Assembly: GCA_035529175.1 (NCBI GenBank) | Contig: DATKXG010000262.1 | Location: forward strand, 1-46,259 | Direction: 5' to 3' | DNA from: Ilumatobacteraceae bacterium | GTDB taxonomy: Bacteria; Actinomycetota; Acidimicrobiia; Acidimicrobiales; Ilumatobacteraceae | DNA: 46,259 bases | In this document: positions 7,337 through 46,259 of the stretch, piece by piece | Layout of the letters: each line of letters begins with the position of its first letter | How positions within the stretch are numbered: the first letter of the stretch is position 1 | Notes under the pieces: generated by a model | Database searches by the model: none | Seen by the model: the letters and a program-made list of their open reading frames with translations, nothing else | What the model was told of the DNA's origin: nothing | Made by a program: the position numbers and the translations under genes

Positions 7337-9787
<2,451 letters not shown>

Positions 9788-16445: not shown

Positions 16446-16471
16446 TTGAGTCTCCCGATCGTCGTCGACAG

Positions 16472-16790: not shown

Positions 16791-16925
16791 GTGAAGCGTA
16801 CCTATCAGCCCAACAAGCGCCGCCGAGCCCGCAAGCACGGGTTCCGTGCGCGCATGAGCACTCGCGCCGGTCGTGCGGTGTTGAAGTCCCGCCGGGCCAA
16901 GGGCCGGGCCCGACTCTCCGCTTGA
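16791..16925 (+). CDS. rpmH: 50S ribosomal protein L34
   Basis: GTG 16791, preceded by GGAG at 16781-16784, gives [44 protein letters not shown] (44 aa). It is below the ORF-track size cut-off. Confidence 0.95.
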
Positions 16926-17299: not shown

Positions 17300-17556
17300 C
17301 GTGGAGCCAGCGTCGAGCACTGAGGTGGATCGAGGCGTATCAGCGTGCCTTTGCCGGCCGCCCATCGCCCTGCCGGTTCTATCCGACGTGTTCCAACTAT
17401 GCCCATGAGGCATTCGAGGTCCATGGTACCGCTCGTGGTGGTTGGCTGACCTTCACCCGGCTGCTGCGTTGTCGACCCCTGGGGCCGAGTGGCTTCGATC
17501 CCGTCCCTGATCCCACACCGAACGTTCACAACCTCACTGAGGGTGATATTCGGTGA
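17296..17556 (+). CDS. yidD: Membrane protein insertion efficiency factor YidD
   Basis: [30 protein letters not shown]...[17 protein letters not shown] is the YidD signature. ATG 17296 overlaps the rnpA stop (ATGA). Confidence 0.9.
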
Positions 17557-17589
17557 TCATGCTGCCCCACCGAGAGGTCGACTGAGTCG

Positions 17590-18753
17590 ATGTTCGAGAT
17601 TCCTGCTGCCCTGCTGTCGTGGTTCTACGGACTGACGAACAGCTACACCATCGCCATTGCGATGATCGCCGCCGTCGTGATGGCGATCACGACGCCGCTG
17701 ACGCTCAAGAGCACCAAGGGCATGCTCGAGATGCAGAAGTTGGCGCCCGAGATGCGCAAGTTGCAGAACGAATACCGCAACGACCGCACCAAGCTCAACG
17801 AAGAGATGATGAAGCTCTACCAGGAGCACAAGGTCAATCCGATGGCCTCGTGTCTGCCCCTGCTCGCGCAGGCTCCGGTGTTCTACATCATGTTCCGGGT
17901 GATGCGCGGCATGGCCTACCGTCCCGTCGGGGCTGCTCGGCCGGTGTCCGACGCGGTGTGGACGGCGTTCGGTCGAGCCGACGAGGTTGCCGATCCGGGG
18001 TTCATTCCCCGGTATCTGGCGATCGACTCTGCGCTGTACAAGTCGCTCTTCGGCGAGCAGTCGATCATGTCGCTCGGCCTCGACTTGTCGAAGTCGGCCG
18101 CCCAGGCCGTCGGCGATGGGTTCGGCACTGGGATCTGGTACGTGCTGCTGGTCGTGCTGCTCGGGGCGCTGTACTTCGCCCAGCAGCGCATGGTTGCTGC
18201 TCGGGCGTCGATCAGCCCGACGATGTCGGCGGGTCAGCAGAAGCTGATGCAGTACCTGCCCGTGTTCTTCGCGATCTTCCAGATCTTCTTCCTGGCCGCA
18301 CTCGTCGTCTACTACGTCTTCCAGACGATCTTCCGAATCATGCAGCAGGCATACATCACCCGCGCGTTCTACGGCCACGACGAGTCACTCGGTCGGCAGG
18401 CCCAGCGCGCCGGCGAATCCGCTCGGGAGGAGGCCAAGAAGAATCCCGATGGCGGCGGTGGGTTCTTCGCGCAGGCCAAGCGTGATCTCGCCGGTCCGGC
18501 CGCCGACACCAAGGGTGCCGGCAACCCGAAGAACAGCAGTGCCAAGAAGCCCCCGACGAAGGACGCCACCGCCGCGAAGCCGGGGCCGACGCCGACGAGC
18601 AAGCGGGTGACGCCTCCCAAGAATCGCCCGACGCCGTCATCCGGGGCGAAGGGTCGGCCGACGCCGACACGACAAGAGGCGCAGGCCAACAAGACCAAGT
18701 CGAAGAAGTCGTCGAAGTCCACGCGACCGAACTCGCCGAAGAAATCCTCCTGA
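17590..18753 (+). CDS. yidC: Membrane protein insertase YidC (Oxa1 family) with long Lys/Pro-rich C-terminal tail
   Basis: PLTLKSTKGMLEMQKLAPEMRKLQNEYRNDRTKLNEEMMKLYQEHKVNPMASCLPLLAQAPVFY is the conserved 60-kDa IMP core. The last ~110 aa are basic low-complexity sequence (KKPPTKDATAAKPGPTPTSK...). Confidence 0.95.
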   Translation: MFEIPAALLSWFYGLTNSYTIAIAMIAAVVMAITTPLTLKSTKGMLEMQKLAPEMRKLQNEYRNDRTKLNEEMMKLYQEHKVNPMASCLPLLAQAPVFYIMFRVMRGMAYRPVGAARPVSDAVWTAFGRADEVADPGFIPRYLAIDSALYKSLFGEQSIMSLGLDLSKSAAQAVGDGFGTGIWYVLLVVLLGALYFAQQRMVAARASISPTMSAGQQKLMQYLPVFFAIFQIFFLAALVVYYVFQTIFRIMQQAYITRAFYGHDESLGRQAQRAGESAREEAKKNPDGGGGFFAQAKRDLAGPAADTKGAGNPKNSSAKKPPTKDATAAKPGPTPTSKRVTPPKNRPTPSSGAKGRPTPTRQEAQANKTKSKKSSKSTRPNSPKKSS

Positions 18754-34170: not shown

Positions 34171-36537
34171 GTGGTGATCTCCGGCGGCCGTCATCATGGC
34201 GACAACGACGACACCGACTCGGATCTCGCCGGGCTGTTGTCGTCGAACGATCGCCCGCACCGCGCGTGGTGGTTGATCCTGCCGATCGTCGCTGTGTCAG
34301 CGGCGCTCGTGGTGTTCGCCGGGATGCGAGCAGGAGCCGACCCCGGTCCCGAGACGATCGGTGTGGTCGTGGGGATCGCGTTGTTGGCACTGGTCGCCAT
34401 CGTGGCAACGGTGCTCGAATCACGCCGGATCGGCCGTCGCTCCCAGCGCACCATCGATGAGCTCTCTCGCACGCAGTCGGAGATCCGCAGGCTGCTCGAC
34501 GACCTCCCGGACGCCGTGATGGGTCTCAACGACCGTGGACTGATCGAATCGGCGAACCAGCGAGCAGCGCTGCTCACCGGGCGAACGATCGACGAACTCG
34601 TCGGCCGTGCGTTCCTCGAGATGATCGGCAGCGACGACCGCGAGTCGGTGACCGAACGATGGCACTTCGACCAAGCGACGCCGGGGGACCTCGACGTCAC
34701 GGGCGACCTGACCGGGCCCATCGGCAACCACGTCGTGTTCGAACTGGTCGATGCCGACGGCGAACCGCATCTCGTCGAGGCATCGCTGCACCGTCCGTCG
34801 GTGACCGACGGTCGGGGCGGTGGACTGGTGGTGTTGCTGCGCGACGTCACCGACCGCGCCCGCACGACCGTGGCGCTCGAACAGGCTCGCCGTCGCTTCC
34901 AGCAGGCGTTCCATTCGGCGCCGACCGGCATGGCGCTGGTGCGACTCGACGACAGCCGCATCGTCGACGCCAACCAGTCGCTGGCCGACATGCTGGCTCG
35001 ACCCCTGTCGTCGTTGGTGGGGATCGGCATCCGTGAGATCACCCATCCCGACGATCTCCGCGCCGCTGCCACGCAGCGGGCCCGCCTCGAGTTGGGCATC
35101 GCCGACACGTATCTGCTGGAGCAGCGGTACGTGCGCAGCGACGGTGCGTTCGTGTGGGCGCGAACCCGGGTGTCGGTGACCGAGGACGAGGGTGTGGCGT
35201 TGGCGATCACCCATATCGAGGACGTCACCGAGCAGCGCATGGTGGCCGAACAGCTGACCCATGCCGCCACGCACGACGGGCTGACCGAGTTGCCCAACCG
35301 CGCCGCGCTCGTCGAACGCCTCGACGAGCTCCTGGCGCGCGCCGATGTGGGGCAGGTGTCGGTGTTGTTCATCGATCTCGACAACTTCAAGATCGTCAAC
35401 GACAGCCTCGGCCACGGTGTGGGCGACGAGCTGTTGCGCCAGGTCGCGAGCCGTCTGCGCCACGTGATGCGCGACACCGACCGCCTGGCTCGTCTCGGCG
35501 GCGACGAGTTCGTCGTATTGGTCGACGGCGGCGTCGACCCCGCCGTGGTCGCCGAGCGGCTGCGACGGGCGGTGCAGCGGCCGATCGTCATCGACGAGCA
35601 CGAGCTGGTCGTGACCGCCAGCATCGGATTCGCCGTCAACTCCAGCAGCGAACTCACCGCAGACGAACTGCTGCGCGACGCCGACGCCGCGATGTACAGG
35701 GCCAAGGCGGCAGGCCGCGACCGGGTCGAGGCGTTCACCGAGGAGACGCGGGCTGCGTCGGTGGCTGCACTGCAGACCTCGAGCGAGCTCCGTCGCGGGC
35801 TCGAGCGTGGTGAGGTCGTGCCGTACTTCCAGCCGATCGTCGATCTCGAAGGCGGCCAGGTCGTCGGCTTCGAGGTGCTGGCTCGTTGGCTGCATCCCGA
35901 TCGCGGGTTGCTACTGCCCGGCCAGTTCCTGCCGATGGCGGAGGAGTCGGGCCTGATCGTCGACCTCGGCGCCGGCATCCTGCGCGACTCGCTCGCACAG
36001 CTCGCGCACTGGCGCGCGGTGGGGCTGCAGTTCGCGTCGTGCTCGCTGTCGATCAACGTCGCGACGCAGCAGCTGATCGACGGCCGGTTCCTCGACGTCG
36101 TTCACGATGCGCTCGGCGAGACCGGCATCGATGCCGACTCGTTGTGGCTGGAGATCACCGAGACCGCCCTGATGGCCGACACCATTGCCGCCGGCCGGGC
36201 GCTGCGGGATCTACGCGGGCTGGGTCTGCACCTGTCGGTCGACGACTTCGGCACCGGCTATTCGTCGTTGACGTATCTCAAGCGGTTCCCGGTCGAGGCC
36301 ATCAAGATCGACCGGTCGTTCGTCACCGGGTTGGGCCTGGAGGCCGACGACACCTCGATCGTCGAAGCGGTCGTCCGGCTCGGGCACTCACTGGGGTTGT
36401 CCGTGGTCGCCGAAGGCGTCGAGACTCCGCTGCAGCTGAACCGGCTGCGCGAGCTGGGCTGCGACAAGGGCCAGGGCTACCTGTTCGGCCGTCCCCGCCC
36501 CGCCGGCATCACCGCCAACGAACGCGCCGACGCCTGA
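34171..36537 (+). CDS. Membrane-anchored PAS-PAS-GGDEF-EAL cyclic-di-GMP turnover protein
   Basis: Two N-terminal TM helices are followed by two PAS-like segments. The GGDEF domain has an intact RLGGDEFVVL, and the EAL domain has FEVLARW, EITE, DDFGTGYSSL, KIDRSF and QGYLFGRP. Confidence 0.92.
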   Translation: MVISGGRHHGDNDDTDSDLAGLLSSNDRPHRAWWLILPIVAVSAALVVFAGMRAGADPGPETIGVVVGIALLALVAIVATVLESRRIGRRSQRTIDELSRTQSEIRRLLDDLPDAVMGLNDRGLIESANQRAALLTGRTIDELVGRAFLEMIGSDDRESVTERWHFDQATPGDLDVTGDLTGPIGNHVVFELVDADGEPHLVEASLHRPSVTDGRGGGLVVLLRDVTDRARTTVALEQARRRFQQAFHSAPTGMALVRLDDSRIVDANQSLADMLARPLSSLVGIGIREITHPDDLRAAATQRARLELGIADTYLLEQRYVRSDGAFVWARTRVSVTEDEGVALAITHIEDVTEQRMVAEQLTHAATHDGLTELPNRAALVERLDELLARADVGQVSVLFIDLDNFKIVNDSLGHGVGDELLRQVASRLRHVMRDTDRLARLGGDEFVVLVDGGVDPAVVAERLRRAVQRPIVIDEHELVVTASIGFAVNSSSELTADELLRDADAAMYRAKAAGRDRVEAFTEETRAASVAALQTSSELRRGLERGEVVPYFQPIVDLEGGQVVGFEVLARWLHPDRGLLLPGQFLPMAEESGLIVDLGAGILRDSLAQLAHWRAVGLQFASCSLSINVATQQLIDGRFLDVVHDALGETGIDADSLWLEITETALMADTIAAGRALRDLRGLGLHLSVDDFGTGYSSLTYLKRFPVEAIKIDRSFVTGLGLEADDTSIVEAVVRLGHSLGLSVVAEGVETPLQLNRLRELGCDKGQGYLFGRPRPAGITANERADA

Positions 36538-36667: not shown

Positions 36668-37263
36668 CAGGAGCCTTCCTTGCGCGCGCGCAGGACGAGG
36701 GCGGCGGGTGCCGGGCTGTGCGCCGTGGCACCGAGTTCGAGGAGTTGATCGATGCGGAAGTTCGCCCGGGTCAGTGCGGTGAACCACTCGCCGATCGTGC
36801 GGGCGCCGGTGCCGTAGGGATGCTCGGGCGAGATGTCGGCGAACGGATGCGGCATCGAGAGCACGAGGGGCATCCCCGGCTTGAGGATCCGATGTACCTG
36901 GCGAAGGAGCCGCCCGAGGTCGTCGACGCGGTCGATCGTGTGGGCGGCCAGCACCACCTCGCACGATGCGGAGGCGACGTCACCCAGGTCAGCGAGATCG
37001 GTCTCGAGGCACTGGACCTGGAGCTCCGCCGCCGTCGCACGGCGGCGGGTCTCGGCGATGCGTTCGACGTCGGTGTCGATGGCGATCGACTTCGCGCCGG
37101 CGCGAGCGAATGCCACCGAGTTGAACCACGGTGAGATGCCGAGCTCGATGGCGCGTCGGCCGTCGCCCACCTCCCCACACAGTCGGAGTTCGTCGTCGCC
37201 CGGCGTGCCGGGCCCGTAGTTGATGTCAGCGACCACGACCCCAGTGTGCCCGCTGGACGCCAT
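36667..37263 (-). CDS. Class I SAM-dependent methyltransferase
   Basis: From ATG 37263: ...RRAIELGISPWFNSVAFARAGAKSIAIDTD (motif I / post-I) and HRILKPGMPLVLSM (motif IV region). The upstream 140 aa of the ORF-track model overlap the divergent DUF5318 gene and are rejected. Confidence 0.75.
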   Translation of the reverse strand: MASSGHTGVVVADINYGPGTPGDDELRLCGEVGDGRRAIELGISPWFNSVAFARAGAKSIAIDTDVERIAETRRRATAAELQVQCLETDLADLGDVASASCEVVLAAHTIDRVDDLGRLLRQVHRILKPGMPLVLSMPHPFADISPEHPYGTGARTIGEWFTALTRANFRIDQLLELGATAHSPAPAALVLRARKEGS

Positions 37264-37323
37264 GTCGTCGGGGATCGGTTGGCGATCAGCGCGCCGCTGC
37301 ACGAGCCGGTAGTGTCGGCGGCC

Positions 37324-37740
37324 ATGGCGTTCACGGTCGGCGCACTTCGTGGGTCGGATGGATCGCGGGGCCTGGTCGATCACCGGCTGGCCCGTCGAAT
37401 GCTGATCAGCCAGGTGAAGAAGGGCCGTGTTCCGCTCGACCAGGTGTGCGACGCGCATCCTGAATTGATCCGCGCCGCTCGCAATGTCGGGACGCAGACC
37501 TCGACGCTGTGTCCCATCTGCGAGGAGTCGGACCTCAAGCTGGTCACCTATGTGTTCGGGCCCCGCCTGTCGGCGCAGGGCCGTTGCGTGTCGACGGCCA
37601 AGGAGATGCGCCAGCTCAACGACCGGGCCGAGGAGCTGAGCGCCTACGTCGTCGAGGCGTGCGTCGAGTGCCGTTGGAACCATCTGCTGAGAGTCATCCC
37701 GGTCGGCGGGCGACGCTCAGCGGCGCGCGCCACTCGATGA
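37324..37740 (+). CDS. DUF5318-like zinc-ribbon protein
   Basis: From ATG 37324: VDHRLARRMLISQVKKGRVPLDQVCDAHPELIRAA...CPICEES...YVVEACVECRWNHL. The two CxxC pairs and the overall pattern are typical of this actinobacterial family. Confidence 0.7.
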   Translation: MAFTVGALRGSDGSRGLVDHRLARRMLISQVKKGRVPLDQVCDAHPELIRAARNVGTQTSTLCPICEESDLKLVTYVFGPRLSAQGRCVSTAKEMRQLNDRAEELSAYVVEACVECRWNHLLRVIPVGGRRSAARATR

Positions 37741-38339
37741 CCGGACCGTCGACGGCGCGGCGTCTTGCCGTCGCGGCGATCGCGGCGATCGCGGTGGTCG
37801 CGGTGGTCGCGCTGGCAGCGTGTGCGAGCGATCCCGACCCGGCGAGCTCGGAGGCAGACACGCCTGATCCGACGACAACCGACCCGACAGCCGAGGCGGG
37901 CCGGCAACCCGAGGGGTTCACGACGATCCAGGCACTGATCACCGAGACCGACGGCGAGGTGTGCGAGGTCTGCCTGTGGCTCGCCGACGACTCGGCCGAA
38001 CGCGGTCGCGGGCTGATGGGCGTCACCGACCTCGGTGATCCGGTCGGGATGGCGTTCCGGTTCGACGAACCGACCGCGGGCTCGTTCTACATGTTCCAGA
38101 CGCCGACCCCGCTCTCGATCGCCTGGTTCGGTCGCAACGGTTCCCACGTCGGATCGGCTGACATGCCGCCGTGTCTGGACAGGCCGGCAGGCGAGTGCCC
38201 CTTGTATTCGCCGGGCGCCGAGTACGACCTCGCCATCGAGGTGTTCGAGGGCGGTCTGGAGGCGTTGGGTCTGGTCCCCGGATCGCGAGTGGAGCTCGTC
38301 GAGGGCTCCGAGTCCGAGCGCTGCCCCGAGGCCGGCTGA
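37737..38339 (+). CDS. DUF192 domain lipoprotein
   Basis: ATG 37737 overlaps the upstream stop (ATGA). The signal plus lipobox is VVALAAC. The DUF192 core is AERGRGLMGVTDLGDPVGMAFRFDEP...FYMFQTPTPLSIAWF...CPLYSPGAEYDLAIEV. Confidence 0.8.
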   Translation: MTGPSTARRLAVAAIAAIAVVAVVALAACASDPDPASSEADTPDPTTTDPTAEAGRQPEGFTTIQALITETDGEVCEVCLWLADDSAERGRGLMGVTDLGDPVGMAFRFDEPTAGSFYMFQTPTPLSIAWFGRNGSHVGSADMPPCLDRPAGECPLYSPGAEYDLAIEVFEGGLEALGLVPGSRVELVEGSESERCPEAG

Positions 38340-38352
38340 TCCCGGCCGGGGG

Positions 38353-39084
38353 TCATGGCGGCGAGGCCTGCGTGTTCACGGGAGCCGCAGCGATCTCGCC
38401 ACAGTCGCCGGCGAGGAAGGAGTGCAGGAGGTCGGTACCCGCGCGGCGGGCTGCCTTCAGGTGCTGGCCCTTCTGGGTCGTCGCGTCAGCGTCAGGACTG
38501 TTGGTCACGAACTTCAGCCCGGCCAGCGGGACGTCGAGCTCCGCGCACAGCCAGGCGATCGAGTAGAGCTCGTACTCCTCGATGTCTCCCGTGAGCCACA
38601 TCGGCCAGTGCCGATCGTGTGGCGTGGAATAGCGCCCCCCGCTGAAACACGTGACCGGCGGACCCGACCACGCCGTCGGGGTGGCGAGCTCGAGCGGCGC
38701 GTTGGCGTACTCCCATCCACGAAAGTTGAAGAAAAGGTCCCACTGTCGCGAGAACCGGACGAAGTACGCACGCTCGAGTCCGGTCCCGTCAGACCAGCCG
38801 TACCGGCCGCACGATCCGAAATTGACCACTTGGGCGAACTGCAGGTCATCGGGAGGACGCAGGAGGAATCGGGCGGTCACCGCAGCGATCGCCGGGCCAC
38901 CCGAGCCCGTGACCACCACGACGAGGTCACCGAACCTCCACGCCATCTGCTCGTTCGAACCGCTTGCCGGCACTCGCCAGAACGGCACGGAGCCCGCCGG
39001 CACGAGATCCGACGCCTCGTCTTGATCGGCGATCACGACGAGTGTGGGCCGGTCCACCGACGGCGGGGCCCCGGATCGGGTCAC
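38353..39084 (-). CDS. Phosphorylase-superfamily (PNP_UDP_1 fold) protein, MTA/SAH-nucleosidase- or futalosine-hydrolase-like
   Basis: VVVVTGSGGPAIAAVTA (cf. GIGKVAAA), VVNFGSCGRYG (cf. NTGSAGG) and GDIEEYELYSIAWLCAELDVPLAGLKFVTN (cf. VEMEATAIAHVC..VPFVVVRAISD) match the family. GTG 39084 overlaps the upstream stop (GTGA). Confidence 0.65.
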   Translation of the reverse strand: MTRSGAPPSVDRPTLVVIADQDEASDLVPAGSVPFWRVPASGSNEQMAWRFGDLVVVVTGSGGPAIAAVTARFLLRPPDDLQFAQVVNFGSCGRYGWSDGTGLERAYFVRFSRQWDLFFNFRGWEYANAPLELATPTAWSGPPVTCFSGGRYSTPHDRHWPMWLTGDIEEYELYSIAWLCAELDVPLAGLKFVTNSPDADATTQKGQHLKAARRAGTDLLHSFLAGDCGEIAAAPVNTQASPP

Positions 39085-40106
39085 GTCGCGACGGCCCGGA
39101 ACAGTGGCCCGGCGTGGCGCCCATCACCGATCGGGATCTTCGTGAGCGCCCGCCCCTGGTACTCGAGCTGGTACATCAGCGGCACCGCGTCGATCAGGCG
39201 CTGCTGGTCACCGTTGAGCCCGGCCTCGAGCGACGCCAGCACCTCTTGGTAGGTGCCGTCACAGATCTCGATCAGCCGGACGATCTCCGGGTCCAACTCG
39301 TCGGACTCGACTCGCTCACGCAGACGCGGGTCGATGTGACGAACGGCGCTCGTGTCGACGAGAATCGGAGGACCACTCGGGAAGTGTGGGCGATCGCCGG
39401 GCCGGTACTGCCGCCCTTCCACGATCTCGTCGAAGCGGTAGTAGTGCGCGAGTTCACGTCGCTCGCCGAACAACAGGTGGTCACCGTCCCACACGGTCTC
39501 GTCGACGCCCTCACCCTGGGCGACGATCTCGGCGAGGGCGAGCATCGCCGTATCGAGGTCGGTCACGACGACCGTCTGACCGCCCCCGCCGTAGTACGCA
39601 GTGTGAGGCTCGACCTGGCAGCCCAGGTTGACCCCGCGTTCGAACAGATCGGCACCGAGGGACTCGAAGCCCTCGGCGATGGCCGCGTAGAACTGGCCGA
39701 TCGTGTCGAAGTGATCTGGCTGCGATGACGCTTCGTGGGCGGCGGGCTGCTCGATCGAGCAGAACAACTTCAAGGCCTTGGGACCGAACGAGCGAAGGCG
39801 CATCTCGATGCCGTCGCTGTGCCGGAGCACACCCGGGTACGACGGCGCAGCGGTTCCCGTGACCTTCGGTCCCTGGCCGTTGCCGCGGACTGCGTGCAGC
39901 AGGTTGGCCGCGAGGCACATGTGCAGCATCTCCTCCATGACGACCGACCGCAACAGCTGCTGCACCTCGCGGTTCTTGCCCTCCTCGATCGAGAACAATG
40001 CGGTCAGGTAGAGCGGAATGGTGCTCAGCTCCAGTTCGATCGCCCACTGGAGATGGCGACAGAGATCCTCACGGGTCTCGATGTGGCGGGGTGACGGCGA
40101 CATCAT
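39081..40106 (-). CDS. Ferritin-like (VioB/RebD-type ferritin-like domain) putative di-iron protein
   Basis: From ATG 40106: LQWAIELELSTIPLYLTALFSI, then VVMEEMLHMCLAANLL (ExxH) and RRELAHYYRF (second ExxH). The 202 N-terminal residues of the 543-aa ORF lie inside the GMC gene in another frame and are rejected. Confidence 0.7.
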   Translation of the reverse strand: MMSPSPRHIETREDLCRHLQWAIELELSTIPLYLTALFSIEEGKNREVQQLLRSVVMEEMLHMCLAANLLHAVRGNGQGPKVTGTAAPSYPGVLRHSDGIEMRLRSFGPKALKLFCSIEQPAAHEASSQPDHFDTIGQFYAAIAEGFESLGADLFERGVNLGCQVEPHTAYYGGGGQTVVVTDLDTAMLALAEIVAQGEGVDETVWDGDHLLFGERRELAHYYRFDEIVEGRQYRPGDRPHFPSGPPILVDTSAVRHIDPRLRERVESDELDPEIVRLIEICDGTYQEVLASLEAGLNGDQQRLIDAVPLMYQLEYQGRALTKIPIGDGRHAGPLFRAVAT

Positions 40107-41905
40107 CGCTTCCCGAGGTCGTTGAGGATCGCTCGCGAGGCCCGGTACACCAACGCTGCCATCGTGAGCGACGGGTTCGACGTACCGATCGTCGGCATGC
40201 TGCCGCAGCCCACGAGGAACAGGTTCTCGTGGTCCCACGACCGCAGGTCGGTGTCGGTCACCGAGGTCGTCGGGTCGGCGCCCAGGCGGTGTGTGCCGAC
40301 GATGTGTCCGGCGCCGTGGAACGACAACGACTCGTGTCGGTGCGTCATGTAGCCGGGATCGCCGGGGTGATACGCCGTGAACTCTTCGATCTCGAGTCGG
40401 TCGTAGACCTGGCGCGTGAACTCGCGTGCGGCGACCATGCCGTTGCGCGTGTAGGCGTCCACGTCGTAGTCGATGACGGGTCGGGGTGCGCCGAGCGCAT
40501 CGACGTACCGGCGGTCGATCGTGACGCGATTGCGTGGATCGGGGAGCTGCTCGACGAGGAATCCGAAGCGGGTCTGGCGCGGCAGCTCGTTCGCAAGCGA
40601 CGCCCGCAACTCCGAGCCGTACTTGCCCTCCAAGCGGACCATGCGCTCCACGTCGCTGCCGGGCGAGAACGCAGCGAACGTCCAGCCCCAGTTGGTCAGG
40701 TCCGTACGCCACGCCGCCCGGCGCGACCGGAAGTCACCGTCGCGGAGTGACGGGATCCCCGATGTCAGCCCGGGTCCGCGATACGAGCCGAGGTTCTCCG
40801 GCGCGAGTCCCCACGTGAGGAGGTACGGATGGTCCATCAGATTTCGTCCGACCTGGTCGCTGCTGTTCGCCGCATCGGACGCGAGCAACAGCTTGGCGGT
40901 CTCGATCGCGTGCGCCGCGATGACGTACACCTCTGCCGTCACGACCTCGGGTGTGCCCACGGGAGGGATGCTCGCGGGGTCGTATGCGGTGACTTCCAGC
41001 CCGGTCACCTTCGTGCGGTCGGCACTCAGCTGGACCCTGGTGACGATCGACTGCGTGCGGATGTCGATCAATTCCTGCGGCGCGGTCGCCCACGTCTTGC
41101 CCGCGTTCCACTTCGCCTGCACCGGACAGATCGGAGTGCACGACGCGTTGCCCTCACAGCGCTCCCCGACACCGGGCGCACCGGGCGCACCGATCGGTGT
41201 GTAACCCCGGCCACCGTCGTAGTCGGCGTTGGGGATGCTGTTGCGCGAGTGGGCCAGCGGCTTGAACGCGATCTCGAGTTCGTCGCCGTCGAGCGTGACC
41301 GTCGTGCCGTCGAGGTGCTTGCCGAACCACTTGTCCTGGTAGCTGGGCGGGATGCGGTGCATCGGGAAGACGTAGCCGTCGCGGAAACCGATCCCGTGAA
41401 ACGTCTGGTCCTCGACCTCGGCGGCCACGCCGAGTTCGAACTCGGCTGCCTCGTAGTCGGCGTTCATCTCCTGGTACGGGATCGCCCAGTCGACGCCGAC
41501 GCCGTAGCGAGATTGCATCTCGAAGTCGGCCGGGACCATTCGGAACGACATGCCGAGCCAGTGCAGGCTCGTACCCGATCGCTCTCGCTGGTAGTTGCTC
41601 GAGAACGGCAACGGGCCGTTCTGGACCATGTACCCACTCGTGTTCGGCTCCCCCTCCTCGATCTTGGCGAGTTCGAGCACCGACGGCGCCGGCGCGTACT
41701 GGTTCGGCAGGTACGGCGAGTTCGGCGTCTTGAACGGGTTCTCGTGGAAGTACCGGACGTTGCTCTCGTAGTCCTCGGCGGTGGCGCCCGTGGCGTTGCC
41801 TGCTTCGAGGACGAGGACCCGGCAGCCATGTTCTGCGAGACGCTTGGCCATCAACGCGCCGACGAACCCGGCCCCGACGATGGCGACGTCGTAGTCGGCG
41901 CTCAC
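40103..41905 (-). CDS. GMC family FAD-dependent oxidoreductase (sugar/polyol dehydrogenase large-subunit type)
   Basis: From GTG 41905: VSADYDVAIVGAGFVGALMAKRLAEHGCRVLVLEAG (FAD GxGxxG). The C-terminal GMC motif is HGAGHIVGTHRLG...VTDTDLRSWDHENLFLVGCGSMPT. Confidence 0.88.
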   Translation of the reverse strand: MSADYDVAIVGAGFVGALMAKRLAEHGCRVLVLEAGNATGATAEDYESNVRYFHENPFKTPNSPYLPNQYAPAPSVLELAKIEEGEPNTSGYMVQNGPLPFSSNYQRERSGTSLHWLGMSFRMVPADFEMQSRYGVGVDWAIPYQEMNADYEAAEFELGVAAEVEDQTFHGIGFRDGYVFPMHRIPPSYQDKWFGKHLDGTTVTLDGDELEIAFKPLAHSRNSIPNADYDGGRGYTPIGAPGAPGVGERCEGNASCTPICPVQAKWNAGKTWATAPQELIDIRTQSIVTRVQLSADRTKVTGLEVTAYDPASIPPVGTPEVVTAEVYVIAAHAIETAKLLLASDAANSSDQVGRNLMDHPYLLTWGLAPENLGSYRGPGLTSGIPSLRDGDFRSRRAAWRTDLTNWGWTFAAFSPGSDVERMVRLEGKYGSELRASLANELPRQTRFGFLVEQLPDPRNRVTIDRRYVDALGAPRPVIDYDVDAYTRNGMVAAREFTRQVYDRLEIEEFTAYHPGDPGYMTHRHESLSFHGAGHIVGTHRLGADPTTSVTDTDLRSWDHENLFLVGCGSMPTIGTSNPSLTMAALVYRASRAILNDLGKR

Positions 41906-42357
41906 AGCGACACCTGTGTCTCGGTGCCCCATCCGTACGAGCCCCTGCCCGGCGGCAGCGACCACGAGCCGAATCCCGGCTGTTTTGCCGCCTGTGGGTG
42001 GCTGCCGATCGTCGGCCAGACGAGCCCTTCGGTGTAGGCCTCGGCGGACACCACCTTGCTGACGTCGGCGGCGCTGGCGCCGTGCTCGCTCCGCCATTCC
42101 GGGGGCAGCTGATCCCACTGCCCGAGGTACCACATCACGATGATGTTCCTGCAGAGCGGTCCGAACCGGGAGTGCTCCAGCAGGTGCTCGACGGGAAGGT
42201 CGGACGCTGCGAGCAGTGCGGTCACGTGGTGATCACCAACGATCGCGAGGAGTGTCGCGAGGTATGTGTCGATCATGCCCGTCCCGGCGAGCTCCGCCGT
42301 CGTGAAGCCCGTGAGTCGGGATGACAATGCGGAGAACTCGCTGGCGCCGGATCTCAT
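41902..42357 (-). CDS. Sugar dehydrogenase complex small subunit (FAD-SLDH / sorbitol dehydrogenase small-subunit-like)
   Basis: FSALSSRLTGFTTAELAGTGMIDTYLATLL...NIIVMWYLGQWDQLP...VVSAEAYTEGLVWPTIGSHPQAAKQPGFGSWSLPP follows the pattern of the small subunits that partner GMC flavoproteins. No Tat or Sec signal is visible. Confidence 0.6.
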   Translation of the reverse strand: MRSGASEFSALSSRLTGFTTAELAGTGMIDTYLATLLAIVGDHHVTALLAASDLPVEHLLEHSRFGPLCRNIIVMWYLGQWDQLPPEWRSEHGASAADVSKVVSAEAYTEGLVWPTIGSHPQAAKQPGFGSWSLPPGRGSYGWGTETQVSL

Positions 42358-43271
42358 TGCGGGACCACGAACACCGGACCATCCTCAGCCGAGACGATTG
42401 GTGACTGATAGGTCTGCGCCGCGACGGGGACGCGGTTGGCGACGAGACGCTGTAGGTCGTCGCGCATGTTCCACTTGTCGTTCTTGGTGCCGAGCTCGAG
42501 GGTCACCTTCGCTCCCTGCTCCGGCGTCAGGAACGCTGTGTCGAAGGTGTCGTAGAAGCTCCACCAGTTCGAGACCACCCGATTGCTCCCGTAGGGGTTC
42601 ACGCCGTACTCGATGATCGGTGAGGCATTGGCGGCGAACGTGTCGATGCCCGAGAGGTCGGCGTCGATCTCGAAGATCAGGGAGCCCTGCTTGTTGAGGT
42701 CGGCCATCGGATACTCCTTCGCGAGCTCCTCTGGCGGGGGCACGATGTCGTAGATGCCGTACTTCCAGGTGGTCACTTCCGGGTTGTTGGGAGCCGGGAC
42801 GGTGTAGTCGAAGAACGCGACGAACTTCGGTTCACCGAAGAAACCGCGACCGGCCGCGACGGCCTGCGGGCTGGAGCACGGAACGTGCAGGCGATACCCG
42901 CCGATGCTCTTGGTCTGGTCGTCACCACGTAGGTAGTCCTGCCAGGACATGAGCGGGACCGTGCCGTCGCGCGCCTCGGGATAGGCGTACACGTTGAACT
43001 CGACCTCCTCGACATGCTCGAGGAAGCTGTCGCCGTGGCCGGTGTATCGCTGCAGGTCGAGCGACACCATCGCATAGTCGTCGCCACCGTCGGTGAAGCG
43101 TGCCGCGCGCAGCCCGGCACCTGGCGCTGTGTCGGGGAGCACCGAGGCGACCAGGTCGACCTCGACCAGGTAGTACAGCCAGAACGATTGCAGCGATGCG
43201 TAGAAGAACGGCATCGTGAACCCCTGGATCGGCCCCGGGAACAATGCTGACTGGTCGACCTGTCCGGACAT
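42354..43271 (-). CDS. Hypothetical protein, first gene of the operon (possible acetoacetate-decarboxylase-like beta-cone fold; weak)
   Basis: ATG 43271 is preceded by GAAGGGGGA. There are no TM helices or signal peptide. The segments FWLYYLVEVDLVASVLPD..., YAMVSLDLQRY and VEFNVYAYP resemble the strand pattern of ADC/DUF2071-type proteins. This is pattern recognition only. Confidence 0.55.
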   Translation of the reverse strand: MSGQVDQSALFPGPIQGFTMPFFYASLQSFWLYYLVEVDLVASVLPDTAPGAGLRAARFTDGGDDYAMVSLDLQRYTGHGDSFLEHVEEVEFNVYAYPEARDGTVPLMSWQDYLRGDDQTKSIGGYRLHVPCSSPQAVAAGRGFFGEPKFVAFFDYTVPAPNNPEVTTWKYGIYDIVPPPEELAKEYPMADLNKQGSLIFEIDADLSGIDTFAANASPIIEYGVNPYGSNRVVSNWWSFYDTFDTAFLTPEQGAKVTLELGTKNDKWNMRDDLQRLVANRVPVAAQTYQSPIVSAEDGPVFVVPQ

Positions 43272-43331
43272 GGGTCCCCCTTCCACGGACGACCCCGCGG
43301 TCGACCTCGCCGTGCACCGTAGCCGGTCTCG

Positions 43332-46259
43332 TCAGGCCCGCCGGACGAACTCCGATCGTGGCCGGGAACGGCTCGCCTCGATGCGCAATTCGAGCGCTCT
43401 CGCCCCTTGCGGGACCGCACACTGCCGGGCCCGTTCGAGCAGCTCGTCGACCCGTGACGGATCGCCGCCGTCCGCACGGAGCACTTCGGCCCGCAAGCGC
43501 AGGAGTTCGGGTTCCCAGAAGTGCTCGTCCATCGAGTCGACGAGGCGTAGGGCTCCGTCGAGGGTCACCCCTGCCGCGGCGAGATCGCCTCCGACAGCCT
43601 GTGCGTGGCCGGCCAGACCGACGAAGTACGTCTCGCCGAGACGGGAGCCCTGCGCCTGCCACCTCTCGATGCCCGCCCACAGGTCGTCGACGGACGCGAC
43701 GTCGCCGAGCATCGCCCGCCCCCAAGCCAGCAGGGCATCGGCCCAGCCGACCCAGAAGGTGAAGCCGTGCTCGGCCGACAACGTCCGGGCCTCCTCGGCT
43801 CTGGTGATGGTGGCGGGCACGTCGGACTCGAACTGGCAGAGCCAGCTGTCGAAGCACAGGGCAAGGCAGATGGTGAACGGGTGGCCGAGCCTCCTGGCGG
43901 CGTGAACGGCGTCGTCGCTCATCTGCCTGGCGGTCTTGGAGTCGCCCATGATCCAGTGCGTCCACGCCGCATAGGCGCGTGATGTGATGATCGGATCGAC
44001 CACGTCGGTCAGGCTGCCGAGGTACGCGCCTGGCCGGTCGGCATCCGGAAGCCCGAGCGCTCGTTGGAGATGGTCGAGGGTGAGCGCCTGGTCCTGGCCC
44101 GTGTAGAACAGCACGCTGCCGAGCGCCCGCTCCGCGCCCGCTGTCAGCTCCACCCGGTGCGGCGCTGCCCTCGCCATCTTGTCGAGCTGACGAGCGAGCG
44201 AGACGGCGCGTTCGTACCGGGCCTGAAGAAGACGGACCCGAAAGAGGCCGTACAGGGCCGGGTAGGCATGCGAGTCGTCGCCAGCAGTCGCGGAGAGCTC
44301 CTGCGCTCGGGCGTACATCGCCTCTGCTTCCGGTGATCCGTACCCTCGCGTGGCGGTGGTGGGCACGCCCAGCCGCACCAGCACATCGATCTCGTACCGG
44401 TCACGGTCGGGGCCGGGTGGAAGCCGGTCGATCAGCTCGCGGGCGTGGGAGAGATGGGTCAGCGCCTCGTCGTGTGCCGAGATGGCGATCGCACGGTCAC
44501 CCGCGCGGAACAGGTACGGCAGGGCTCGCTCGGCCTCGCCAGAGAGTTCGAGATGCCGCGCGGACACCTCTGGTTCCGCCAAGCTGCGTTCAACGAAGCG
44601 TGACTCGAGTGCATCGGCGACCCGCGCGTGGAGCTGGCGACGAGTCGAGCGCAGCATCGAGTCGTACGCGACCTCCTGTTGCAGAGCATGACGGAACGAG
44701 TAGACGGCGGTGGTCCCCGCGCCGCGCCGGACGATCATGCCGGACGCCAGGAGGCGTTCGATGCGTTGGACGAACTCGTTCGTGTCGAGGCCACTCACGG
44801 CCTGAAGGAGACCCGCCGGCGCCTCGCGACCGAAGATCGACAGGATCCGCAGGACGTCCGATTCCGGTCCGAGCCGGTCGATACGCGCCATGAGCGAGTC
44901 ACGGAGGGTGGCGGGCACGGATGGATCGGTGTCCGGCGGGCTCGCGAGGACGAGGTGGGTGAGTTCCTCGGCGAACAGCGGCACGCCCTCGGTTCGCGAC
45001 GAGATCTGGCTGGCCAGCGACTCGGCGATCGTGCTCGTCCCGGCGACGGCCGAGATGATCTGGCTCACCTCACTCTCGCTCAGGCGTTCGAGTTCGATCC
45101 GCTGGTGGTTGGACGCCGACGGGATGTCCGGGCGGTGGTCGGATCGATGGGTGACGATGGTCATGATGTCGGAACTCGGTTGGTCGACGATGAACCGCTC
45201 GACGAGTTCTGCTGTCGTGCTGTCGATCCACTGGATGTCGTCGATGACGACGACGACGGGCTGACGCTTCGCTCGGTCCTCGACGAGTCGGGCCACGATG
45301 TCGAGCGTGTGCTGGCGGACGTGATCCGACGACCCGTCGACGACGCGGTACGGCTCGACGAGGGGGAGACCGACCAGCTGCGCGATCACGGGCACGGCCA
45401 GGCTTCTCGGTGTGCCGTTCTCGTCGGCCAACTGTTCGGCCCCTTCGATCGTCAGCGCGCCGTGTTCGCCCAGCAGGTACCGGCGGAACTGCTCGGCGGC
45501 GCTGTGCAGGTGACTGGCCTGGTGCAACATCGAGCAACGGAATTCGATCTCGATCGCCCCTTCGGCGCGCAGGAGGCGGAGCAACTCGCGAACGAGCCGC
45601 GTCTTGCCGATCCCTGGCTCTCCCGACAACCAGACCACCTGCGGATCGCCCGCCCGTGTCCGCCGCCACGCAGCGATCAGCTGATCGAGTTGGGCACTAC
45701 GCCCGATCAGCGGGGTGAGGCGCTGCTGGGCGGCTGCCAGATCGAGTCGGTCGCTGGCACCCGTGTCAGCAACGGCGGTGAAGACCTCGACCGGCTCGCT
45801 GATGCCCTTGAGTGCGTGCAGGCCCATCGACTCGAAATCGATGAAGCCCACGCACTCCTCACGGGCACTCGCGCTGACCGCGATCGTGCCGGTGGCTGCG
45901 ATCCCCTGGATCCTCGCCGCCATGTTGGGAGTGTCGCCCACCACGTCGCGCAGCTGCCGGTTGTCACCGGCGCCCATGTCGGTGATCACGGTCTCGCCGG
46001 TGTGCACGCCGACCCGTACGGCCAGGCCGGGGAAGTCGGAGCGGAGTCCGTCGACGGCATCGATCAGCGCGAAGCCGGCTCGGATGGCACGCACGCTGGC
46101 GAGCGCATCGGCGACGGGGTATCCGAAGTAGGCGAGCACGCCGTCACCCATGAAGTGGCCGACGTAGCCTCTCTCGGCTTCGACTGCAGCGCTGACGGCT
46201 CGTTGGTACGCCTGGACGACGGTGGTGAACTCCTCGACGTCCAACGACTCCGACATCGA
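43332..46259 (-). CDS. Class III adenylate/guanylate cyclase domain fused to a STAND-type AAA ATPase and TPR/helical repeats; N-terminus truncated by the window edge
   Basis: The cyclase core has HFMGDGVLAYFG, RVGVHTGETV and VVGDTPNMAARIQG. Walker A is LSGEPGIGKTRLVRELL and Walker B is PVVVVIDDIQWID, followed by about 500 aa of TPR-like helices. No LuxR-type HTH is seen at the C-terminus. The frame stays open at 46259 (…S-MSESLDVEEF), so the first beta-strand/metal Asp lies outside the window. Confidence 0.88.
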   Translation of the reverse strand, partial: SMSESLDVEEFTTVVQAYQRAVSAAVEAERGYVGHFMGDGVLAYFGYPVADALASVRAIRAGFALIDAVDGLRSDFPGLAVRVGVHTGETVITDMGAGDNRQLRDVVGDTPNMAARIQGIAATGTIAVSASAREECVGFIDFESMGLHALKGISEPVEVFTAVADTGASDRLDLAAAQQRLTPLIGRSAQLDQLIAAWRRTRAGDPQVVWLSGEPGIGKTRLVRELLRLLRAEGAIEIEFRCSMLHQASHLHSAAEQFRRYLLGEHGALTIEGAEQLADENGTPRSLAVPVIAQLVGLPLVEPYRVVDGSSDHVRQHTLDIVARLVEDRAKRQPVVVVIDDIQWIDSTTAELVERFIVDQPSSDIMTIVTHRSDHRPDIPSASNHQRIELERLSESEVSQIISAVAGTSTIAESLASQISSRTEGVPLFAEELTHLVLASPPDTDPSVPATLRDSLMARIDRLGPESDVLRILSIFGREAPAGLLQAVSGLDTNEFVQRIERLLASGMIVRRGAGTTAVYSFRHALQQEVAYDSMLRSTRRQLHARVADALESRFVERSLAEPEVSARHLELSGEAERALPYLFRAGDRAIAISAHDEALTHLSHARELIDRLPPGPDRDRYEIDVLVRLGVPTTATRGYGSPEAEAMYARAQELSATAGDDSHAYPALYGLFRVRLLQARYERAVSLARQLDKMARAAPHRVELTAGAERALGSVLFYTGQDQALTLDHLQRALGLPDADRPGAYLGSLTDVVDPIITSRAYAAWTHWIMGDSKTARQMSDDAVHAARRLGHPFTICLALCFDSWLCQFESDVPATITRAEEARTLSAEHGFTFWVGWADALLAWGRAMLGDVASVDDLWAGIERWQAQGSRLGETYFVGLAGHAQAVGGDLAAAGVTLDGALRLVDSMDEHFWEPELLRLRAEVLRADGGDPSRVDELLERARQCAVPQGARALELRIEASRSRPRSEFVRRA

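Follow-up and report, generated by a model that had tools for sequence, protein, structure and literature searches.

The operon and its junctions

The window analysed here, a stretch of 46,259 nucleotides from an Ilumatobacteraceae bacterium, carries five co-directional minus-strand ORFs at positions 38353–43271, in the order p1-p2-p3-p4-p5 (reverse-complement read and ORF table). Another co-directional gene, REG, lies 60 nt upstream of p1. The genes are as follows:

42354–43271, minus strand: p1, 305 aa, divergent protein of the acetoacetate decarboxylase (ADC) fold (beta-cone)
41902–42357, minus strand: p2, 151 aa, small subunit of the FAD-SLDH or 'hitchhiker' type, without Tat signal
40103–41905, minus strand: p3, 600 aa, GMC flavoprotein catalytic subunit of the FAD/3Fe-4S dehydrogenase-complex family
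39081–40106, minus strand: p4, 341 aa, ferritin-like protein (PF12902) with a predicted di-metal site and a C-terminal helical extension
38353–39084, minus strand: p5, 243 aa, divergent protein of the nucleoside phosphorylase/hydrolase fold, accessory gene of one clade
43332–46256, minus strand: REG, class III nucleotide cyclase, AAA_16 (STAND) ATPase and TPR region

Consecutive genes from p1 to p5 share start/stop overlaps, ATGA at 42354–42357, GTGA at 41902–41905, ATGA at 40103–40106 and GTGA at 39081–39084, exactly where an earlier note on this DNA had placed them. As the four-base overlap is the commonest operon junction in high-GC Actinomycetota, these overlaps indicate an operon and are unremarkable by themselves. 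What is above chance, judging from the homologous sequences, is that the gene set and its tight junctions are kept across phyla: the overlaps measure 4, 4, 1 and 4 nt in the homologous locus L054 and 14, 4 and 4 nt in that of a Ruegeria plasmid. The ATG of p1 at 43271 is preceded by a Shine-Dalgarno-like GGAAGGGGG and gives the same first residue as in homologues, and the Rossmann GxGxxG of p3, which begins at residue 11, fits the start chosen. The matching junctions of these homologous loci also back the starts. Longer ORFs for p3 and p4 (676 and 543 aa) were rejected; they run hundreds of bases into the upstream genes and have no backing from homologues.

Scans of p1 to p5 found no twin-arginine motif among the first 35 residues, no CxxCH and no stretch of 19 residues whose Kyte-Doolittle hydropathy exceeds 1.6. 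These scans agree with the earlier note, which had seen no cytochrome c, Tat signal or transmembrane helix.

The dehydrogenase core and its partners

The p3 protein matches GMC_oxred_C (E 2.3e-22) and GMC_oxred_N (E 1.7e-9) and aligns over its full length with the alpha subunit of the Burkholderia cepacia FAD-glucose dehydrogenase (BcGDH; E 1.4e-61) and with the large subunit of the Gluconobacter fructose dehydrogenase (FDH; E 4e-58). It carries a cysteine motif:

41126–41158, minus strand: p3 Cys250-x5-Cys256-x3-Cys260, predicted ligands of a 3Fe-4S cluster

These cysteines align with Cys212, Cys218 and Cys222 of BcGDH alpha, the ligands of the 3Fe-4S in its crystal structure (PMC6719666). 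All 45 homologues keep the first and third, and 44 keep the second. His115 of p3 is also kept and aligns with BcGDH His105, which is contiguous with FAD in the crystal density (PMC6719666). As read from the alignment with BcGDH and FDH, H534 and N577, conserved in at least 90% of homologues, may be the His/Asn catalytic pair.

The kinship of p2 to known small subunits is weak and remote: its family profile, A3, matches the FDH small subunit (7w2j_B) with an E of 0.0046, from residue 49 of the latter, near the expected end of a leader. PF12318 matches 9 of 19 p2 homologues, and the Serratia orthologue reaches the gathering score of the small-subunit model. Neither an RR motif nor a hydrophobic leader was found in any of the p2 orthologues examined.

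For the AF2 model of p1 (pLDDT 87.7), the best 24 Foldseek matches all belong to the ADC superfamily (MppR, Swit_4259, Sbi00515 and ADC; prob 1.0, TM 0.46–0.65). PF06314 matches 27 of 28 members of the p1 family (best E 4.5e-11), p1 itself scoring 22.2 bits, under the gathering cut-off of 29.8. With 199 representative clusters in 1.84 billion, the p1 family is a small, discrete one, and its profile found no match among PDB sequences. One residue stands out:

42825–42827, minus strand: codon of p1 Lys149, in the motif GRGFFGEPK, invariant in 28 sequences

Lys149 lies inside the sole stretch aligned by the Pfam ADC model (p1 120–158 with model 81–118) and aligns with Lys115 of the Clostridium ADC (GRELSAYPKK), with a weak score. 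This lysine makes p1 a putative Schiff-base enzyme.

PF12902 matches p4 with an E of 8.4e-54. The sole close structure to the AF2 model (pLDDT 91.8) is that of the uncharacterised Caulobacter protein CC_0557 (3hl1), beyond which the weak structural neighbours are Dps and ferritins. Two ExxH motifs are present:

39921–39932, minus strand: p4 E59-x-x-H62, first ExxH; E59 and H62 invariant in 30 sequences
39444–39455, minus strand: p4 E218-x-x-H221, second ExxH; H221 in 30 of 30 sequences, E218 in 26 of 30

E26 and E199 are likewise invariant in 30 sequences, giving a conserved pattern E…ExxH…E…ExxH with six predicted E/H ligands. Other members of the family are fused to CDGSH 2Fe-2S or Fer4_19 Fe-S domains or to ABM; the six ligands and the Fe-S fusions together suggest that p4 is reduced by Fe-S centres. 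This family far exceeds the module (at least 1792 clusters), and one member stands alone in Catenulispora. Pfam and InterPro link PF12902 with VioB, whose match to p4 is weak (E 2.5e-4; 19 bits against an equivalog cut-off of 1250).

The p5 protein reaches 33.4 bits with PNP_UDP_1 (cut-off 25.1). Its best specific match is futalosine hydrolase (E 1.3e-5), at 25 bits against an equivalog cut-off of 124.7, and it is also far under the cut-off for MTA/SAH nucleosidase. The family is tiny (23 clusters in 5.8 billion). All the assignments considered in the earlier note were borne out: a GMC flavoprotein, an SLDH-type small subunit (remotely), a ferritin-like protein with two ExxH, a nucleosidase-fold protein and an ADC-like p1.

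Conservation and fusions of the module

The survey covered 48 species-level loci anchored on p1. The genes p1, p2, p3 and p4 occur together in 37 of them; taken singly, GMC is found in 43, p2 in 40, p4 in 40, a REG homologue (at most 10 kb from p1) in 26 and p5 in one. The conserved unit is p1–p4, not all five genes. Beyond that one locus, p5 was found with the module only in relatives with at least 67% p1 identity; it belongs to the operon only among close Acidimicrobiia-type relatives, and two members of its family, from two genomes, lie outside the operon.

The module is present in Actinomycetota, Acidobacteriota, Pseudomonadota, Bacillota and Myxococcota, with hosts that include Serratia, Allosphingosinicella, Robertmurraya and a Ruegeria plasmid, and the flanking genes differ between the window and 90%-identical copies of the module. 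REG, which matches Guanylate_cyc and AAA_16 in Pfam, has its N-terminus beyond the end of the window (an estimated 25 aa or so are missing). The order REG-p1-p2-GMC-FER recurs on the Ruegeria plasmid and in L054, and Acidobacteriota loci have TPR-containing Ser/Thr kinases at the REG position, one of which, metagenomic, also has AAA_16. None of the 48 loci has a cytochrome c gene close to that of the dehydrogenase; the only multi-CxxCH ORFs are those of L042 and L044, both lacking a GMC gene. Nor do the loci surveyed share a transporter or downstream catabolic gene pointing to a substrate. As p4 is absent from otherwise intact modules (p2-GMC-p1 on a Streptomyces plasmid; L046 and L047), it is not obligatory.

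Several genes of the module are naturally fused. Among 120 clusters listed, eight measure 455–470 aa and the four that were read are all p1::p2 fusions, as is a 458-aa ORF of L018; p1 sits in these proteins at the position of the Tat leader. Fusions of p4 to p1 were found in P0292, P0299, P0330 and P0337, a p4::SnoaL::p1 fusion in P0368, and L062 has the order small-GMC-(p4::p1). These fusions argue for a single physical complex, which p1–p4 would probably form. In addition, P0315 joins a VAO-type flavoprotein to p1, which, with the ADC fold and the invariant Lys149, suggests that p1 acts after flavin oxidation.

No described system with the composition of p1–p4 was found in the literature searched; NCBIfam has no specific model, and RefSeq names the genes hypothetical, GMC or ferritin-like. 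Of the earlier interpretation, the five family calls, the view that the genes are undescribed as a combination and the suggestion of a complex, now strongly reinforced by the p1::p2 and p4::p1 fusions, are retained. The five-gene set as the conserved unit is not: that set is confined to a narrow clade, and the conserved cyclase-STAND-TPR gene upstream had been overlooked.

Proposed function and relation to known systems

The module can be viewed as a cytoplasmic dehydrogenase-lyase assembly in which the 3Fe-4S cluster has a di-iron protein, not cytochrome c, for its partner, a reading to which we give about an even chance of being right. In such a model, p1–p4 would make up a soluble enzyme of several proteins, located in the cytoplasm, whose catalytic core is that of an FAD-dependent dehydrogenase complex. 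The dehydrogenase, made of p3 (FAD and a surface 3Fe-4S) and p2, would turn a hydroxyl on a small polar metabolite into a carbonyl by oxidation. The lysine of p1 would form a Schiff base with this product, leading to decarboxylation, retro-aldol cleavage or elimination. By elimination and by analogy with fusions, electrons would pass from the 3Fe-4S to the di-iron site of p4 and thence to O2, p4 acting as a terminal oxidase or oxygenating the same substrate. The usual neighbour of the module is a signalling protein with TPRs and a cyclase or kinase output domain, and p5, added in this lineage, would perhaps deliver the substrate.

Other readings give the same proteins different tasks. It is conceivable, though unlikely, that they tailor a specialised metabolite in the manner of VioA/VioB or of MppR in enduracididine biosynthesis, the flavoprotein making a reactive carbonyl or imine that VioB-related, ADC-like or SnoaL-like proteins would couple or cyclise. 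The link of PF12902 with VioB points this way, as do the biosynthetic MppR and Sbi00515 among the nearest structures of p1 and the fusions with SnoaL_2 and ABM, domains common in polyketide tailoring; yet the VioB score of p4 is far below its cut-off. Some neighbourhoods are suggestive: co-directional genes for an ABC-2 exporter, an AMP-binding enzyme, a thymidylate-synthase-like protein, OYE, APH and GT2 in Robertmurraya, two further GMC genes and a UbiD decarboxylase extending the module in Serratia, and RidA genes adjoining p4 in Ruegeria and a Myxococcales locus. However, PKS, NRPS or other biosynthetic genes are not conserved next to the module in most of the 48 loci, the operon of the window lies about 22 kb from dnaA amid housekeeping genes, and the same four genes kept with a signalling protein across several phyla are what one would rather expect of a physiological or catabolic unit.

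Salvage or catabolism of nucleosides or glycosides, along the lines of the earlier note, appears less probable still: p5, or elsewhere a phosphatase, would free a ribosyl or glycosyl moiety, the GMC protein would oxidise it and p1 would then split the resulting keto-sugar, through a Schiff base or by elimination. The hints in favour of this chemistry are scattered and come from gene context. Glycosidic bonds are known to be broken by oxidation and subsequent elimination, and to our knowledge, from molecule names and general background, the substrates oxidised by the characterised members of the p3 family are all sugars, polyols or sugar acids. Accessory genes of nucleotide or nucleoside type turn up in different lineages: this operon has PNP_UDP_1, one metagenomic locus has Acid_phosphat_B inserted between p1 and p2 and a Metallophos gene following p4, L054 has Metallophos two genes downstream, and in Robertmurraya the thymidylate-synthase-like gene directly precedes p2. 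Against this, these families are generic and each occurs in one or few loci, the loci share no transporter or kinase for sugars or nucleosides, and p5 is missing from 47 of 48 loci, its family also occurring away from the module. Moreover, p5 scores far under every nucleosidase equivalog cut-off and, read by eye, has Asn at what we take to be the catalytic Asp position of MTA nucleosidase. Finally, it is improbable that p2/p3 function alone with a diffusible acceptor while p1, p4 and p5 have separate jobs (iron storage or oxidative stress for p4, for example). The p4-family members found singly, the Dps and ferritin neighbours and the modules without p4 would fit; but p1::p2, p4::p1 and p4::SnoaL::p1 fusions exist, the 37 complete loci keep all four genes in a conserved order with overlapping junctions, and p4, with 341 aa and its C-terminal extension, is far from the Dps and ferritin chains of about 140–185 residues.

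The proposed dehydrogenase-lyase assembly can be set beside several known systems. Like p5, the futalosine hydrolase MqnB, the MTA/SAH nucleosidase and HpnG are PNP_UDP_1 hydrolases, but p5 stays below their specific cut-offs and belongs to a family of just 23 clusters. The PF12902 kin of p4 are 3hl1, which has no assigned function, so that nothing can be transferred from it, and the central domain of VioB, StaD and RebD; unlike that domain, p4 stands on its own as a subunit and is coupled to an ADC-fold protein, with which it is fused in other cases. MppR (4jmd), Sbi00515 (4zbt), Swit_4259 (5upb) and ADC (3bgt) share the beta-cone fold with p1, whose invariant lysine, in a G-R-x-x-x-x-x-P-K motif, occupies the Schiff-base position. 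In contrast, structural identity is 9–13%, p1 has an insertion of about 25 residues (97–120) and does not keep the equivalents of Arg29 and Glu76 of the Clostridium ADC, and its family, unlike other ADC-like proteins, is tied to GMC, small-subunit and ferritin-like partners.

The closest kin of the core are the B. cepacia FAD-glucose dehydrogenase gamma-alpha-beta (6a2u, 8hdd), the Gluconobacter fructose dehydrogenase (7w2j) and the sorbitol, gluconate-2 and 2-ketogluconate dehydrogenases, a type of complex employed in glucose sensors. They share with p2/p3 a GMC subunit homologous end to end, with the same Cys-x5-Cys-x3-Cys ligands and the His aligned with the FAD-contacting His105, and a small subunit whose gene directly precedes that of the GMC subunit and whose family is the same, if only remotely recognisable. 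By contrast, p2/p3 lack a Tat leader, a multihaem cytochrome c subunit and a membrane anchor, which predicts a cytoplasmic complex, and the p3 homologues have all lost the equivalent of BcGDH Cys213, which forms the disulphide with the gamma subunit. The module also differs by its new partners, the ADC-fold protein and the PF12902 di-iron protein, conserved and sometimes fused, and by the TPR signalling protein that is its usual neighbour. It would thus be a cytochrome-free cytoplasmic form of the known sugar-dehydrogenase complexes, with two partners undescribed in the literature searched.

The operon and its surroundings

Five genes of the minus strand (p1 to p5) follow each other downstream of REG, a gene for a class III cyclase-AAA_16 (STAND)-TPR protein. 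The limits of p1 to p5 come from the ORF table and from a reading of the minus strand over 38300-43420.

43332-46256, minus strand: REG, 60 nt upstream of p1 and co-directional with it, N-terminus truncated by the end of the window
42354-43271, minus strand: p1, ADC-fold protein (ADC, acetoacetate decarboxylase), 305 aa
41902-42357, minus strand: p2, putative small subunit, 151 aa
40103-41905, minus strand: p3, GMC flavoprotein, 600 aa
39081-40106, minus strand: p4, PF12902 ferritin-like protein, 341 aa
38353-39084, minus strand: p5, PNP_UDP_1 protein, 243 aa

Both sources confirm the five co-directional genes and the four start/stop overlaps described in the earlier note (ATGA 42354-42357, GTGA 41902-41905, ATGA 40103-40106 and GTGA 39081-39084), and the start codons are consistent with those of homologues. 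As four-base overlaps are common in high-GC operons, these junctions mark an operon and are nothing unusual. The tight junctions retained in distant relatives are more telling than the window's own: the overlaps are 4, 4, 1 and 4 nt in locus L054 and 14, 4 and 4 nt on a Ruegeria plasmid. The operon terminates with p5, since a convergent DUF192 gene ends 13 nt away. Together with a DUF5318 gene (both within 37246-38339, plus strand), it runs towards the 3' end of the operon; the ORF listed for DUF192 begins within the DUF5318 ORF, so its real start is probably farther downstream. A promoter and terminator scan was uninformative (no promoter; two terminator-like sites for 1.9 expected). In a 788-aa ORF (34171-36537, plus strand), two genes away from the cyclase-STAND gene, GGDEF- and EAL-type motifs can be read by eye behind an N-terminal part of membrane and sensory character; the operon region thus appears to be flanked by two second-messenger proteins.

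The window also carries the gene set of a chromosomal replication origin (7337-18753):

7337-9796, minus strand: gyrA
9814-11991, minus strand: gyrB
12425-13513, minus strand: recF
13709-14818, minus strand: dnaN
15057-16532, minus strand: dnaA
17557-18753, plus strand: yidC

This set places the operon about 22-27 kb from dnaA, in the core chromosome.

Conservation of the gene set across genomes

Being the most specific component, p1 was chosen as the anchor of a scan of one genome per species (tblastn and ORF clustering), which yielded 48 loci, several of the incomplete ones being truncated by contig ends.

Genes found near p1 in the 48 loci (within 6 kb of p1, or within 10 kb for REG)
GMC gene (p3): 43/48
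p2: 40/48
p4: 40/48
p2, p3 and p4 together: 37/48
REG (large cyclase-AAA_16-TPR protein): 26/48
p5: 1/48

The five-gene combination put forward in the earlier note therefore has to be redrawn: four of its genes stand as a conserved core, to which the signalling protein REG is added, and p5, of nucleosidase fold, becomes a clade-specific add-on. Besides the four core genes and REG, the ORF clustering of the 48 loci revealed no conserved transporter or further catabolic gene, the other recurrent clusters being mostly antisense shadow ORFs. The order p1-p2-p3-p4 is found in Acidimicrobiia, Solirubrobacterales, Gaiellales, Acidobacteriota and Myxococcales, and the order p2-p3-(p3')-p4-p1 in Serratia, Allosphingosinicella, Robertmurraya and one Solirubrobacterales genome. 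A Ruegeria megaplasmid has the order REG-p1-p2-GMC-ferritin-like, identical to that of the window, under the RefSeq names 'adenylate/guanylate cyclase domain-containing', 'hypothetical', 'hypothetical', 'GMC family oxidoreductase' and 'ferritin-like protein'. The position of REG is held by a TPR-containing Ser/Thr kinase in two Acidobacteriota genomes (L025 14400-16331 and L028 14377-16575) and in one metagenomic locus, where the kinase also has an AAA_16 domain. With a cyclase in Actinomycetota loci and a kinase in Acidobacteriota-type ones, the sensor scaffold is conserved and the output domain varies. In L028, p1 comes directly after a small gene with a GAF domain.

Contigs encoding proteins about 90% identical carry all six genes (REG-p1-p2-p3-p4-p5) between flanks unlike those of the window, a pattern suggesting that these six move together as one block. 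p5 itself scores 33.4 bits against PNP_UDP_1 (gathering score 25.1) and is far under every equivalog cut-off, including those for futalosine hydrolase MqnB (25 vs 124.7) and MTA-SAH nucleosidase (16.6 vs 169). It is restricted to the window and its close relatives (L002 and L054-L057), L001 being without it. Its family comprises only 23 clusters and is not exclusive to this operon, as two homologues are located elsewhere. One of these, 70% identical (L060 10001-14252), adjoins an EamA transporter gene; an unrelated GMC gene, 21% identical to p3 and with its own 176-aa upstream partner, is 1.4 kb away.

Two loci have a richer context. On the Serratia fonticola chromosome (L035 4298-14163), an expanded module includes a small subunit, two tandem 3Fe-4S-type GMC genes, a ferritin-like::SnoaL fusion, p1, a third GMC-like gene and a UbiD-family decarboxylase, and adjoins a T6SS PAAR/Tle1 effector pair. 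In Robertmurraya kyonggiensis (L043 1232-16784), the module (p2-GMC-ferritin-like-p1) sits within a co-directional run, after an ABC-2 exporter, an AMP-binding enzyme and a thymidylate-synthase-like gene and ahead of an Old Yellow Enzyme, an APH-type kinase, an alpha/beta hydrolase and a GT2 glycosyltransferase; this run resembles a natural-product or modification cluster of nucleoside type.

The predicted dehydrogenase pair and its partners

p3 is a GMC flavoprotein (GMC_oxred_C 2.3e-22, GMC_oxred_N 1.7e-9, both over the Pfam cut-offs). Its residues 5-598 align with the alpha subunit of the Burkholderia cepacia FAD-glucose dehydrogenase (BcGDH; E 1.4e-61) and with the large subunit of Gluconobacter fructose dehydrogenase (FDH; E 4.4e-58). 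The BcGDH structure displays a surface 3Fe-4S cluster liganded by Cys212, Cys218 and Cys222 (PMC6719666), with which C250, C256 and C260 of p3 align and would be the cluster ligands; related loci supply 45 homologues, of which 44 keep the middle cysteine and all keep the first and third. A glutamate replaces BcGDH Cys213 in p3, and this disulphide cysteine is found in 0/45 homologues. H115 of p3 aligns with BcGDH His105, the histidine linked to FAD, and H534 and N577, conserved in at least 90% of the 45 homologues, are read from the p3-BcGDH alignment as the putative His/Asn catalytic pair.

p2 alone has no match in Pfam or among PDB sequences. Run against 177,635 PDB sequences, a profile of 19 orthologues ranks the FDH small subunit (7w2j_B) first (E 0.0046), with an alignment that begins at residue 49 of this subunit. 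The FAD-SLDH family PF12318 is matched by nine of 19 p2 homologues (best 1.2e-6), and the Serratia orthologue exceeds its gathering score. The apparent kinship of p2 to the 'hitchhiker' small subunits of this family is thus remote but consistent. No RR motif or hydrophobic leader of a Tat signal was found in p2 or its orthologues, and some relatives carry p1 as an N-terminal fusion. Signal peptides, TM-like segments and haem c motifs are absent from all of p1 to p5. Among the 48 loci, no GMC-containing one has an ORF with at least two CxxCH motifs; the sole two such ORFs sit in L042 and L044, both without a GMC gene. Judged from sequence, these comparisons show a catalytic core of the FAD/3Fe-4S dehydrogenase family without cytochrome c partner, and this core is predicted to be cytoplasmic.

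p4 belongs to PF12902, 'Ferritin-like' (8.4e-54; 183 bits vs a gathering score of 22.3). The one structure close to its AF2 model (pLDDT 91.8) is that of 3hl1, an uncharacterised protein of Caulobacter; beyond it there is only weak Dps/ferritin likeness. E26, E59, H62, E199 and H221 are invariant in 30 sequences and E218 is kept in 26 of them; this E…ExxH…E…ExxH arrangement (E26, E59-x-x-H62, E199, E218-x-x-H221) is the classic di-metal ligand pattern and makes a predicted metal site. Three family members (P0181, P0221, P0239 [L053 8001-9716]; 571-579 aa) are PF12902 proteins fused to the Fe-S domains Fer4_19 and zf-CDGSH, and sit outside any GMC context. They suggest that the orphan PF12902 family in general is a redox enzyme fed by Fe-S centres. 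The BioE ferritin-like oxygenase (PMC12704756) was considered as a relative and dropped, as that paper points to no relationship with PF12902.

Sequence searches of PDB chains with p1, p2 and p5 gave nothing usable, nor did the p1 family profile, so p1 required a fold comparison. The 24 best Foldseek matches of its AF2 model (pLDDT 87.7) all belong to the ADC superfamily (MppR, Swit_4259, Sbi00515, ADC; prob 1.0), which points to a beta-cone fold. p1 itself scores below the gathering score of PF06314 (22.2 vs 29.8 bits), and 27 of 28 p1-family members match this model at E<=0.01 (best 4.5e-11). Lys149 is invariant, in the motif GRGFFGEPK inside the Pfam-aligned stretch, and aligns with Lys115 (GRELSAYPKK) of Clostridium ADC; this hhalign match is statistically weak (E 0.06, probability 0.9) and serves for residue correspondence only. 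Lys115 is the Schiff-base lysine, and Arg29 and Glu76 are conserved with it in true ADCs; at the positions weakly aligned with these two, p1 has Gln28 and Gly78. The p1 family comprises 127 clusters in a collection of 5.8 billion proteins; in a set of 1.84 billion, clustering at 50% identity leaves it with 199 representative clusters.

Gene fusions link these proteins. Among 120 listed clusters of p1 homologues, eight have lengths of 455-470 aa, and the four that were read are p1 fused to p2; an ORF of L018 (458 aa) matches these fusions in length. In an exhaustive profile search, p1 was found behind PF12902 (P0292, P0299, P0330 and P0337), behind PF12902 and SnoaL (P0368) and behind SnoaL alone (P0279), and the P0292 gene is directly downstream of small-subunit and GMC genes. 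The 904-aa P0315 (L063 1542-4256) is a VAO-type FAD_binding_4 flavoprotein followed by a p1-type ADC-fold domain, and the p1 ADC-like family is thus also paired with an unrelated flavin oxidase. Since the small and catalytic subunits of BcGDH form a tight complex (PMC6719666), we infer from the fusions that p4, p1, p2 and p3 are chained in this order into one assembly. These fusions strengthen the earlier proposal of a complex. The family assignments made from the sequence alone also hold: a GMC flavoprotein with an SLDH-type partner (the latter remote), a ferritin-like protein with two ExxH motifs and conserved ligands, a PNP_UDP_1 protein and an ADC-like one, in five proteins without cytochrome c, Tat/Sec signal or TM helix.

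Proposed mechanism and likeness to known systems

It is possible, if rather unlikely, that the module is a self-contained cytoplasmic redox machine of a new type, in which the 3Fe-4S flavoprotein dehydrogenase has a direct electron link to the PF12902 di-iron protein and none to cytochrome c or the respiratory chain, the electrons of the substrate hydroxyl activating O2 on the spot (as an oxidase or by oxygenating the same molecule) and the attached ADC-fold Schiff-base enzyme completing the transformation. The mechanism judged most likely has the following steps. p2/p3 would oxidise a substrate hydroxyl to a carbonyl, a reaction for which all characterised relatives, to our knowledge, use sugars, polyols or sugar acids. 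The electrons would exit via the 3Fe-4S cluster to p4, the sole other conserved redox-type protein, and p4 would reduce O2, acting as an oxidase or oxygenating the substrate. The three CDGSH/Fer4_19 fusion clusters suggest that in p4 relatives the di-iron site normally receives its electrons from Fe-S centres. Against this central step, some modules are without p4, and the p4 family is far larger than the module and is also found alone. Lys149 of p1 may then capture the carbonyl product as a Schiff base, leading to decarboxylation, retro-aldol cleavage or elimination; such a step fits both the closest structural relatives, which bind 2-oxo acids covalently according to their structure descriptions, and the VAO-flavoprotein::p1 fusion. 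The TPR cyclase or kinase would couple the module to signalling.

Neighbouring genes give no more than suggestive hints of a nucleoside- or nucleotide-derived substrate or of a sugar acid. These are p5 in the window, Acid_phosphat_B and Metallophos in one metagenomic locus, Metallophos in L054, the thymidylate-synthase-like gene of Robertmurraya and the RidA genes of two loci. RidA, of the enamine/imine deaminase family, directly adjoins the ferritin-like gene in Ruegeria (L049 14802-15146) and in a Myxococcales locus (L040 6798-7391), which hints at a reactive imine or enamine intermediate.

The STAND and cyclase neighbour suggested an anti-phage defence system, which was rejected: PADLOC gave weak generic PycC hits to the REG cyclase domain only, and p1 to p5 match none of its defence models. 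The earlier view that the combination is not a described system agrees with the sources searched: NCBIfam has no specific model for any of p1 to p5, RefSeq product names for module genes are generic only, and the full-text literature searched, which covers part of the journals, holds no description of this combination.

All GMC/3Fe-4S dehydrogenases known so far are periplasmic complexes linked to cytochrome c. A branch that is soluble, cytoplasmic and served by another electron partner would broaden both the biology of the family and the engineering options for enzymes that serve in glucose and fructose biosensors by 'direct electron transfer' (PMC6719666). The module provides a testable functional context for two orphan groups, PF12902 (thousands of members, one uncharacterised structure) and the ADC-fold family (about 200 clusters). 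If the redox-machine reading were true, PF12902 and the new ADC-like family would gain their first function, and the STAND/TPR cyclase or kinase would be the module's dedicated partner in metabolite sensing. Only metagenomes represent the organism of the window; the presence of the module in cultivable Serratia, Ruegeria, Skermanella-type and Robertmurraya strains makes genetics and biochemistry feasible.

p4 is distinct from the iminophenyl-pyruvate dimer synthases VioB/StaD/RebD, which are about 1000 aa long, whereas p4 has 341 aa and scores 19 bits against their cut-off of 1250. p1 shares the beta-cone fold of the ADC superfamily but, in the weak alignment, not the Arg29 and Glu76 of true ADCs. 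The module would work like the FAD-dependent dehydrogenase complexes, to which p3 and, as a remote putative member, p2 belong; unlike them, it is without a Tat-exported small subunit and a multihaem cytochrome c subunit, and it adds two conserved partners that are unreported for these complexes.
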